DNA of 64,000 nt from sequence record PV763136.1; one strand, given 5' to 3'. The notes under the pieces were generated by a model, which saw nothing but the letters and a program-made list of their open reading frames with translations, ran no database searches and was not told where the DNA came from. Within the stretch, counting starts at the first letter, position 1. Each line of letters starts with the position of its first letter. The translations under genes and the position numbers were made by a program. Below are positions 62,237-62,583 of the stretch, in pieces. The stretch is from Escherichia phage vB_EcoM_YN3.

Positions 62237-62583
62237 GTTTCCTCCATTATCACGTGATAGGTGGATTTTATCATAGCAAGTACTGATTGTCAAGTTCGCC
62301 GCAGGGAGATATTCCCTGCGACTTGTCCAGCGTCCTGGACCAGCAAGACCCAACAAGTGGGTTACCAGAGGCCTATTACCCGCGCTTCGGCTCGACCTTG
62401 TTACAGGTTGGCTGGGGTCACATCGTCATGTGCTGGCTGCCCCCTACCATTTTAAGTGTGGTGCACTATCAAGCCCTCTAAGGGGAACTCAGTCTTCTCC
62501 GAACCCTGTTTCAAAGCATCCGGAGATAAAGCCATCAAATTCATCTTTAAATTGGATATTCATCATGATACACGAAAACAACC

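Follow-up and report, generated by a model that had tools for sequence, protein, structure and literature searches.

The window analysed here is a 64,000-nucleotide (nt) stretch of Escherichia phage vB_EcoM_YN3 (PV763136.1), in which a gap of 347 nt (62237–62583) separates two minus-strand open reading frames (ORFs), ORF74 and ORF75. This gap holds a GC-rich island that encodes a structured non-coding RNA (ncRNA) on the minus strand at approximately 62298–62487, co-directional with its neighbours and upstream of a transfer RNA (tRNA) array. ORF75 (62584–62826) lies 5' of the gap and ORF74 (61898–62236), the gene of an "AT-hook" protein, 3' of it. Read 5' to 3', the order is ORF77, ORF76, ORF75, the gap, ORF74, the tRNA array (60862–61801, identified with ARAGORN and Rfam), Rz-like spanins, and the large terminase, all on the minus strand, with approximately 2.5 kb between the gap and the large terminase gene. 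Positions 61800–64000 are 100% identical to Escherichia phage BP9 (PP488543), whose name we use for the window sequence, and are matched at 95%–98% identity by approximately 118 rV5-like phages (genus Vequintavirus). Searched with blastn, the gap itself had homologues in Vequintavirus only (91%–100% identity).

The first-pass annotation of the window had described this gap as a GC-rich island without a credible ORF, pointed to two perfect hairpins within it, and proposed a structured ncRNA, a replication origin, or a packaging element. The compositional claim holds: the GC content of positions 62290–62499 is 55.7%, whereas the window as a whole averages 44.4% (z = 3.45). No other 210-nt stretch in the 64 kb is richer in GC, and only 0.03% of them attain this value. 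Both hairpins exist as well, including the 6-base-pair (bp) hairpin GTCCAG-CGTC-CTGGAC at 62325–62340, but the 8-bp hairpin CGCAGGGA-GATAT-TCCCTGCG was placed ten bases off, at 62290–62310 instead of 62300–62320. On the minus-strand RNA, the latter grows to 10 bp with G-U pairs. By themselves these hairpins prove little and cannot establish more than chance, and the 8-bp hairpin was dropped as the key feature because it is missing in the sister clade introduced below and hairpins like it are fairly frequent in the window (approximately 15 perfect hairpins of at least 8 bp vs. approximately 6.5 in Markov simulations). Thermodynamic stability was likewise dropped as evidence, since the z-scores are ordinary (−2.04 for the minus and −1.33 for the plus strand of the full 341 nt). 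The case for a real element is comparative, not thermodynamic. In such comparisons, the hairpins flagged at first pass turn out to be optional peripheral decorations, real in themselves, whereas the conserved core at 62372–62411 had gone unnoticed.

This core of approximately 40 nt has the near-invariant consensus CCA-ACCUGUAAYAAGGUCGAGC-N5-7-GCGGUAAUGG on the minus strand and generalises to a closing helix, the hairpin ACCU-GUARNA-AGGU, and GC-N(5-7)-GC followed by GGUAAUGG. Its spread beyond Vequintavirus emerged from a sister clade of four IMG/VR contigs (L006–L009), found with ORF74 and ORF75 as anchors at approximately 70% protein identity. With the gap of this clade as blastn query, approximately 690 T4-like genomes matched over 41 nt at approximately 90% identity. 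Each match lies in unannotated DNA that separates internal-protein or denV genes from vs.8; the copy of T4 itself is located at 64,854–64,903 (NC_000866), upstream of vs.8. Pattern scans found the motif in 49 IMG/VR and 36 metagenome stretches, GC-rich matches inside coding sequences being treated as chance and discarded. The carriers outside the T4-like phages include Roufvirus-like siphophages (approximately 46 kb), a contig related to Pseudoalteromonas phages, and unclassified contigs. A bacterial or prophage origin was dropped, as a scan of bacterial genomes with one genome per species gave a single match, which is coding and looks like chance.

A covariance model, R1, was built from 42 distinct cores. 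In the window it has one match, 62366–62416(−), at 50.3 bits (E = 8.5e-17), which carries the complete family signature ACCU-GUARNA-AGGU-CGA-GC-N5-7-GC-GGUAA with its closing helix. The BP9 core shows a 1-nt insertion (GCGGGUAA) and has UAGG in place of UGGG. Elsewhere, R1 recovers T4 at 70.5 bits and 25 other loci. As it finds one copy per locus, the idea of additional tandem copies in the window or in Roufvirus-like loci was abandoned. Directly 5' of the core lies a lineage-specific hairpin, called S2 in the Vequintavirinae, with analogues in the T4 and Roufvirus classes that show compensation within each class.

The comparison of the rV5 clade with its sister clade delimits the element. The sister-clade gap is of about the same length, and the alignment consists of invariant blocks that alternate with wholly different blocks; a 22-nt indel removes the 8-bp hairpin in L006–L009. 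An extended −10 promoter (TTGACA-17-TATACT, 11/12) directly precedes the first conserved block, and the promoter P74 directly follows the last, so that the conserved element of approximately 170 nt is framed precisely by two near-consensus extended −10 promoters of the gene strand, and no terminator separates these. The helices 5' of the core have changed in a compensatory manner. Hairpin S2 reads CUACG-GACG-CGUAG in the sister clade, with the same loop and 5/5 pairs kept although 4/5 are replaced on both sides, and the enclosing helix S1 reads GGAAC/GUUCC instead of the GGGG/CCCC of BP9, with pairing kept and two pairs changed on both sides. These pair counts are anchor-based; a column-wise count from the MAFFT alignment was dropped, as it places S1 and S2 of the two clades one column out of register. 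Inside the rV5 clade, the element is nearly invariant over its 5' two-thirds, from hairpin Ha to the core, and variation is concentrated in the loops of P3 and Hd3, in the linker, and in Hd1.

The sister clade also carries a 22-nt direct repeat (CCCTTAGAGGGCTTGATAGTGC / CCCATAGAGGGCTTGAAAGTGC, 20/22 identical, 91%; L007 2739–2760 and 2862–2883), the left copy of which is made up of Ha and the next 10 nt. The two copies are 123 nt apart in L007 and bracket the domain formed by S1, S2, and the core. They could represent sites of processing, a pair of binding sites, or what an insertion or duplication left behind, and their arrangement hints that a defined domain may be excised.

That the element acts at the RNA level, on the minus strand, is evident from its base pairing. 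The covariation check in related phages that the first-pass annotation had proposed revealed compensatory changes in T4 relatives as well as in the Vequintavirinae clades. Among 22 distinct T4 relatives, 91.8% of the cells of a hand-derived structure are paired, compared to 21%–46% when the partners are slid by 1–3 columns; six pairs change on both sides, and none of 500 shuffles reaches the observed covariation score. A pseudoknot that links the stretch upstream of the core to the one immediately downstream is well supported in the T4 relatives, where one pair of its helix occurs as CG, AU, GC, and UA and the next as GC or CG, and three pairs have changed on both sides; in BP9, it may form as well. 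The pair closing the core (P1) covaries across classes (AU 27, UA 5, CG 4, UG 4). G-U pairs are frequent in the helices of the T4 relatives, and because these would be A-C mismatches on the opposite strand, they speak for an RNA on the transcribed strand. Furthermore, the motif is always oriented like the flanking genes or tRNAs, with one match per genome.

These observations bear directly on the possibility that the gap acts as DNA, whether as a replication origin, a packaging (pac) site, a protein-binding site, or a recombination site. The region is non-coding and GC-rich, contains palindromes, and lies approximately 2.5 kb from the large terminase gene, all of which would suit such a role. 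However, compensatory changes that include G-U pairs and an orientation that always follows transcription indicate an RNA, and the palindromes noted at first pass are not conserved. The gap contains neither iterons nor an AT-rich unwinding stretch; such origin-like features do occur in a neighbouring island by ORF79 (L002 8250–8449, corresponding to 64049–64248 in window numbering and past the window end), approximately 1.5 kb from the gap, and none lies in 62237–62583. In T4, moreover, replication origins and packaging are well mapped, at places other than this element. We therefore consider a DNA-level role very improbable. The origin and packaging options of the first-pass annotation find no support in the island, while its ncRNA option is supported by the invariant core in unrelated phages, the compensatory flanking helices, the strand bias of G-U pairs, and the bracketing promoters of the sister clade.

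A small protein-coding gene on either strand was weighed in the same way. The gap does contain mechanical ORFs (a pair of plus-strand frames of 64 amino acids (aa) each, a minus-strand frame of 36 aa, and a TTG extension of ORF74), none of which is conserved among relatives, so the earlier statement that no credible ORF is present was true in substance. Either a 64-aa plus-strand or the 36-aa minus-strand product, or the N-terminus of vs.8 in T4, might be encoded, and it would fit this idea that one antisense frame is stop-free across the region in all 11 rV5-clade sequences, that the T4 annotation reads through the element, and that some relatives have a small ORF of 99 nt annotated at its 5' edge. 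Yet a stop-poor antisense strand is expected from composition, and the sister clade has stops in every frame except for one antisense frame that is open in L008. The P3 loop varies between 5 and 7 nt, not in multiples of three, and there are other indels of 1–2 nt within and between the clades, including single-base ones within the rV5 clade. In T4 relatives, the nucleotides downstream of the core are kept while the frame shifts (L029 vs. JS98). A coding frame shared across relatives, which the first-pass annotation had named as the finding that would overturn its ncRNA proposal, was looked for among them and not found. Because of these indels, stops, and frame shifts, no coding frame is conserved, and we regard a protein-coding function as barely credible.

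The annotation of vs.8 deserves comment in this context. In T4 (NC_000866 64,780–64,940; L106 5780–5940), its annotated start lies inside the RNA element, and its first codons read through the core. This N-terminal frame is not kept in relatives, and a better start with the Shine-Dalgarno (SD) sequence GAGAAGAAAUGAGAACA is found approximately 70–80 nt downstream. The vs.8 starts of RB27 and JS98 are also annotated upstream of the site equipped with an SD sequence.

Followed 5' to 3' along the minus-strand RNA, the BP9 locus begins with a candidate sigma-70 promoter (TTTACA-17-TATCAT, 10/12; 62565–62593) predicted by a consensus scan, which overlaps the stop codon of ORF75. In the BP9/rV5 clade, no other promoter-like site precedes the RNA, and a deletion removes the homologous stretch in the sister clade. 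A 21-mer, AAAGATGAATTTGATGGCTTT (62528–62548), is invariant in the alignment of both Vequintavirinae clades; in the sister clade, 6 nt separate its end from the −35 box that follows, and in BP9 it lies inside the non-conserved 36-aa ORF, the small ORF at this place having 8 aa in the sister clade. This 21-mer may be an UP element or a regulator site. A clade-specific leader hairpin, CUCCG...CGGAG (62497–62525), then takes the position that the TTGACA-17-TATACT promoter has in the sister clade. The conserved RNA opens with hairpin Ha, CCC-N5-GGG (62474–62485), followed by the segment CUUGAUAGUGCACCACACUUAAAAUGGUA (62445–62473), which is nearly invariant in the alignments of both clades and may, in the structural model, form a short ACCA/UGGU hairpin. 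Helix S1, GGGG/CCCC, and hairpin S2 together span 62414–62444; S1 encloses the 7-nt internal loop CAGCCAG (62433–62439) as well as S2, CACAU-GACG-AUGUG (62419–62432). The family-defining core, CCA-ACCU-GUAACA-AGGU-CGA-GCC-GAAG-CGC-GGGUAAUAGG (62372–62411), is drawn as a three-way junction of the closing helix P1, hairpin P2 (62395–62408), and the variable-loop hairpin P3 (62382–62391). The CUGG of the adjoining variable linker (62362–62371) can pair with CCAG of the S1 internal loop, and these segments are the candidate pseudoknot in BP9.

The part 3' of the core is more loosely conserved. Hairpin Hd1, CCCA-CUUGU-UGGG (62349–62361), appears dispensable because it is deleted in phiWec189 and truncated in L098. 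Hd2, GUCCAG-GACG-CUGGAC (62325–62340), is the 6-bp hairpin of the first-pass annotation and has the counterpart CUGG-GGACGGA-CCAG at the same place in the sister clade, whereas Hd3 (62298–62322), the 8-bp hairpin extended to 10 bp by G-U pairs, is confined to the rV5/BP9 clade, within which its loop varies. Hd3 is followed by GCGAACUUGACA without a U-tract and ends 4 nt before the −35 box of P74 (TTGACA-17-TAAAAT, 11/12, with an extended −10 TG; 62265–62293). This promoter, found by the consensus scan and annotated under the same name in phage rV5, belongs to ORF74. It is kept in the sister clade and sets the 3' boundary of the RNA region.

No catalogued RNA family accounts for the element. 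A scan of the whole window against Rfam 15 at gathering score found tRNAs only, and in 61800–64000 the scan proposed at first pass, run at E values of up to 10, matched no family in the island. The JS98 copy had no match at E values of up to 10 either, and four other loci gave tRNAs and sub-threshold noise off the motif; ARAGORN and Rfam found no tRNA or transfer-messenger RNA (tmRNA) in 62237–62583. The motif sequence did not appear in the literature searched, and literature on vs.8 and T4 intergenic RNAs held nothing relevant. These phages go unmentioned in the text, tables aside, of a 2023 catalogue of approximately 10,000 candidate phage RNAs (PMC10690425). The family is thus absent from Rfam 15 and apparently undescribed. 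We consider it very probable that the island encodes a real structured RNA belonging to a conserved and uncatalogued phage family.

What this RNA does has to be read mainly from its genomic context and from comparison with known systems. At 13 loci outside the T4-like phages, the motif and a tRNA array are on the same strand, approximately 40–1200 nt apart or with the motif within the array. Usually, it is located 200–800 nt upstream of the array, and in the window phage, tRNA-Arg (61727–61801(−)) lies 565 nt downstream; the motif is found downstream of the array in L104 (38 nt), L075, and L028, and inside it in L083. What lies downstream differs from lineage to lineage, with unrelated genes in each (vs.8 in T4, ORF74 in BP9, tRNAs in others), a context that favours an RNA travelling with other RNA genes.

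This diversity argues against a riboswitch-like or protein-binding leader that controls the next gene, i.e. ORF74 in BP9 and vs.8 in T4. The architecture is aptamer-like, and in T4-like phages the element fills the gap directly before the real vs.8 start and is followed by the conserved GUGCCAAGGAAUGGCCC, which could be an expression platform. In both Vequintavirinae clades, however, P74 lies between the element and ORF74, which can thus be expressed without it, and no terminator or SD-sequestering helix is evident in BP9. A gene-specific cis-regulator or riboswitch is therefore disfavoured, as the downstream genes differ and a strong promoter separates the element from ORF74, and we rate this explanation as distinctly improbable.

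Another alternative is a cis-acting role in transcription. In this case, the nascent RNA would modify its own RNA polymerase (RNAP), and neither Rho-dependent nor intrinsic terminators would then stop transcription of the long untranslated tRNA arrays and downstream genes. Such processive antitermination is known from phage HK022, whose put RNAs, two stem-loops near a promoter, act through a conserved host machine. Similarly, in the sister clade the new element comes directly behind a strong promoter and ahead of untranslated genes, and in most loci outside the T4-like phages it is located upstream of same-strand tRNA arrays. It has no terminator of its own, and a partner in the host RNAP would explain an invariant core in unrelated phages. 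In contrast to put, it consists of a junction core with a pseudoknot that matches put in neither sequence nor structure, and no Rfam family offers a match in sequence or architecture. Where it lies with respect to promoters and tRNA arrays varies: the motif follows the array or lies inside it at the four loci named above, and in T4-like phages it is found mid-operon with no promoter directly upstream. Antitermination thus appears unlikely.

The same compact organization might indicate a new small self-cleaving ribozyme that processes polycistronic phage transcripts near tRNA genes. Phage "theta" ribozymes, which resemble that of hepatitis delta virus (HDV), adjoin phage tRNAs, and twister, pistol, and hatchet are other small self-cleaving ribozymes. 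Like these, the new element combines a short invariant junction core with variable peripheral helices, a pseudoknot, a scattered distribution in unrelated phages with no fixed neighbouring gene, and proximity to tRNA arrays; the repeated flanking modules would be compatible with the excision of a defined RNA. It differs from them in that no ribozyme model of Rfam, including hammerhead, twister, pistol, hatchet, and HDV-like ones, matches it at E values of up to 10, and no cleavage site can be deduced from a case that is purely circumstantial. To our knowledge, decades of study of T4 RNA processing have reported no self-cleavage at the vs.8 locus. Catalysis, suggested by analogy, is accordingly hypothetical and in our view quite unlikely.

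Other phage RNAs resemble the element in some respects. The T4 stable RNAs "species 1" and "species 2" (rnaC and rnaD) are small structured RNAs of unknown function that are co-transcribed with tRNA genes and processed from precursors. They provide the closest functional analogy to the tRNA-array context of the new RNA, which may be processed in a comparable way, although rnaC and rnaD lie in the T4 tRNA cluster, a different locus from that of the T4 motif. YrlA (RF02553), a Y RNA-like RNA of bacteria and phages that binds the conserved Ro/Rsr protein, is likewise structured and often encoded near tRNA genes. Unlike in that family, no YrlA match covers the element in the window or in JS98, and a sub-threshold match in L027 (23 bits, cut-off 69) overlaps tRNAs and not the motif. 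The PeSL cassettes of T4-type phages combine a terminator-like hairpin with a sigma-70-type promoter in plastic regions and are exchanged between phages. Although the new element also abuts a promoter and follows variable internal-protein genes in T4-like phages, it has an invariant 40-nt junction core, a pseudoknot, and carriers outside the T4 type, none of which, as far as we know, has been described for PeSLs.

We favour the interpretation that the RNA acts in trans as a binder or decoy and does not regulate a particular downstream gene. It would be made from its own promoter or by read-through from ORF75 and would persist as a compact stable species, possibly trimmed at its flanking hairpin modules like tRNA precursors. 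The invariant core would serve as the docking site for one conserved partner, likeliest a host protein or an RNA-protein machine common to Gammaproteobacteria. One conserved partner, or catalysis, is the simplest account because the 40-nt core is invariant in phages that otherwise share nothing. The trans-acting binder step is tentative, and taken by itself we give it somewhat less than even weight. For the whole statement, that the element is a structured RNA of a new family and a stable trans-acting binder of a conserved partner, we lean slightly towards acceptance. A bolder version, in which the core provides the active site or the recognition surface for a new RNA class, ribozyme or decoy, that virulent phages of Gammaproteobacteria including T4 express together with their tRNAs, is possible but doubtful; as a decoy, it would neutralise a conserved factor of the host, such as a defence nuclease directed against RNA or a component of the machinery for translation or transcription.

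Several points weigh against the favoured interpretation. The fold energy of the 192-nt region is ordinary (z = −1.43). A terminator scan found no terminator-like site on the minus strand within 61800–64000, so the RNA has no terminator-defined 3' end, and BP9 does not have the strong promoter that directly precedes the element in the sister clade, only the 10/12 match further upstream. In T4-like phages, the position immediately upstream of vs.8 is consistent with a cis-acting leader there. The pseudoknot is less clear in rV5-like phages, as a duplex of 4–7 bp is possible in every class-A sequence but in differing registers, with weak shuffle controls (0.04–0.66). Moreover, P2 and two base pairs of P3 never vary, and an alternative pairing is possible in which ACC pairs with GGU of GCGGUAA next to a GGU-CGA-GCC mini-hairpin; because these segments and CUUGAUAGUGCACCACACUUAAAAUGGUA do not vary, their pairings cannot be confirmed. 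Alignments of the core with the E. coli rrnH operon, the ssrA region, and rnpB were no better than those of shuffled cores. The invariance of the core is the single argument for a bound partner, and transcription, RNA ends, and stability are all features that we infer.

Two ideas about mimicry were set aside. Short identities with host stable RNAs (GUAACAAGGU, AACCUG, and UGCGGU, seen in the 3' end of 16S rRNA) were no better than those of shuffled cores. A resemblance of GUA-R-N-A to the anticodon loop of tRNA-Tyr was a weak idea argued from sequence; the loop has 6 nt, and its flanks form no anticodon stem.

A second non-coding island of approximately 640 nt is located upstream of ORF77 (approximately 63681–64319 in window numbering, continuing past the window end; L002 7882–8520). 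Its GC-rich part (L002 8000–8250) reaches 61% GC, and the rV5 ORF78 call there looks spurious. Next to it are a stretch of 23% GC (L002 8250–8350) and three palindromic iterons, TGTCCGTnnnACGGACA, with a spacing of 21–22 nt (L002 8383–8449), which adjoin ORF79, annotated as a replication initiation protein or a GntR-like (helix-turn-helix) regulator. This second island is a candidate origin or operator. Paralogy between its GC-rich part (63800–64050) and the island studied here was dropped, as local alignment is no better than that of shuffled sequences and they just share the 9-mer AUAGUGCAC. Both islands contain the short motif YUNNAUAGUGCAC, which is not enriched in the window (63984–63996(−) and 62461–62473(−); CTTGATAGTGCAC vs. 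CTCTATAGTGCAC).

The tRNA-rich loci themselves offer further observations. Roufvirus-like phages (L047 at approximately 1650–2450; L027 and L101 on the minus strand) have an array of several structured domains before their tRNAs, one of which carries the motif. A GUUGUG/CACAAC stem closes each domain, and long covarying hairpins (AAGAGCAUU/AGUGCUCUU vs. AAUGACACU/AGUGUCAUU) lie between neighbouring domains. Rfam gave only sub-threshold matches to permuted tmRNA for the other domains. In the window, a tRNA at 61512–61596 (tRNA-Tyr in the BP9 annotation) was called by Rfam and missed by ARAGORN, whereas a 99-nt "tRNA-???" with a 4-base anticodon (61107–61205) and a tRNA-Ser (61304–61394) were called by ARAGORN and not by Rfam at gathering score. 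Furthermore, 18 GenBank records labelled "Campylobacter phage" (within MG065635–MG065690) are 95%–98% identical over this region to rV5-like E. coli phages, and their host labels look doubtful.

If this reading is correct, the annotation of several phages would need to be corrected, as the T4 vs.8 start and calls of the rV5 ORF78 type look like artefacts of GC-rich RNA genes. T4 and hundreds of its relatives would carry an unrecognised structured RNA that is common to unrelated myophages and siphophages and has a core better conserved than most phage proteins. A new orphan class would thereby join the short list of phage ncRNAs, as a second cargo beside tRNAs in phage "RNA gene islands". Its conservation across lineages points to a single conserved molecular partner or to a catalytic role.

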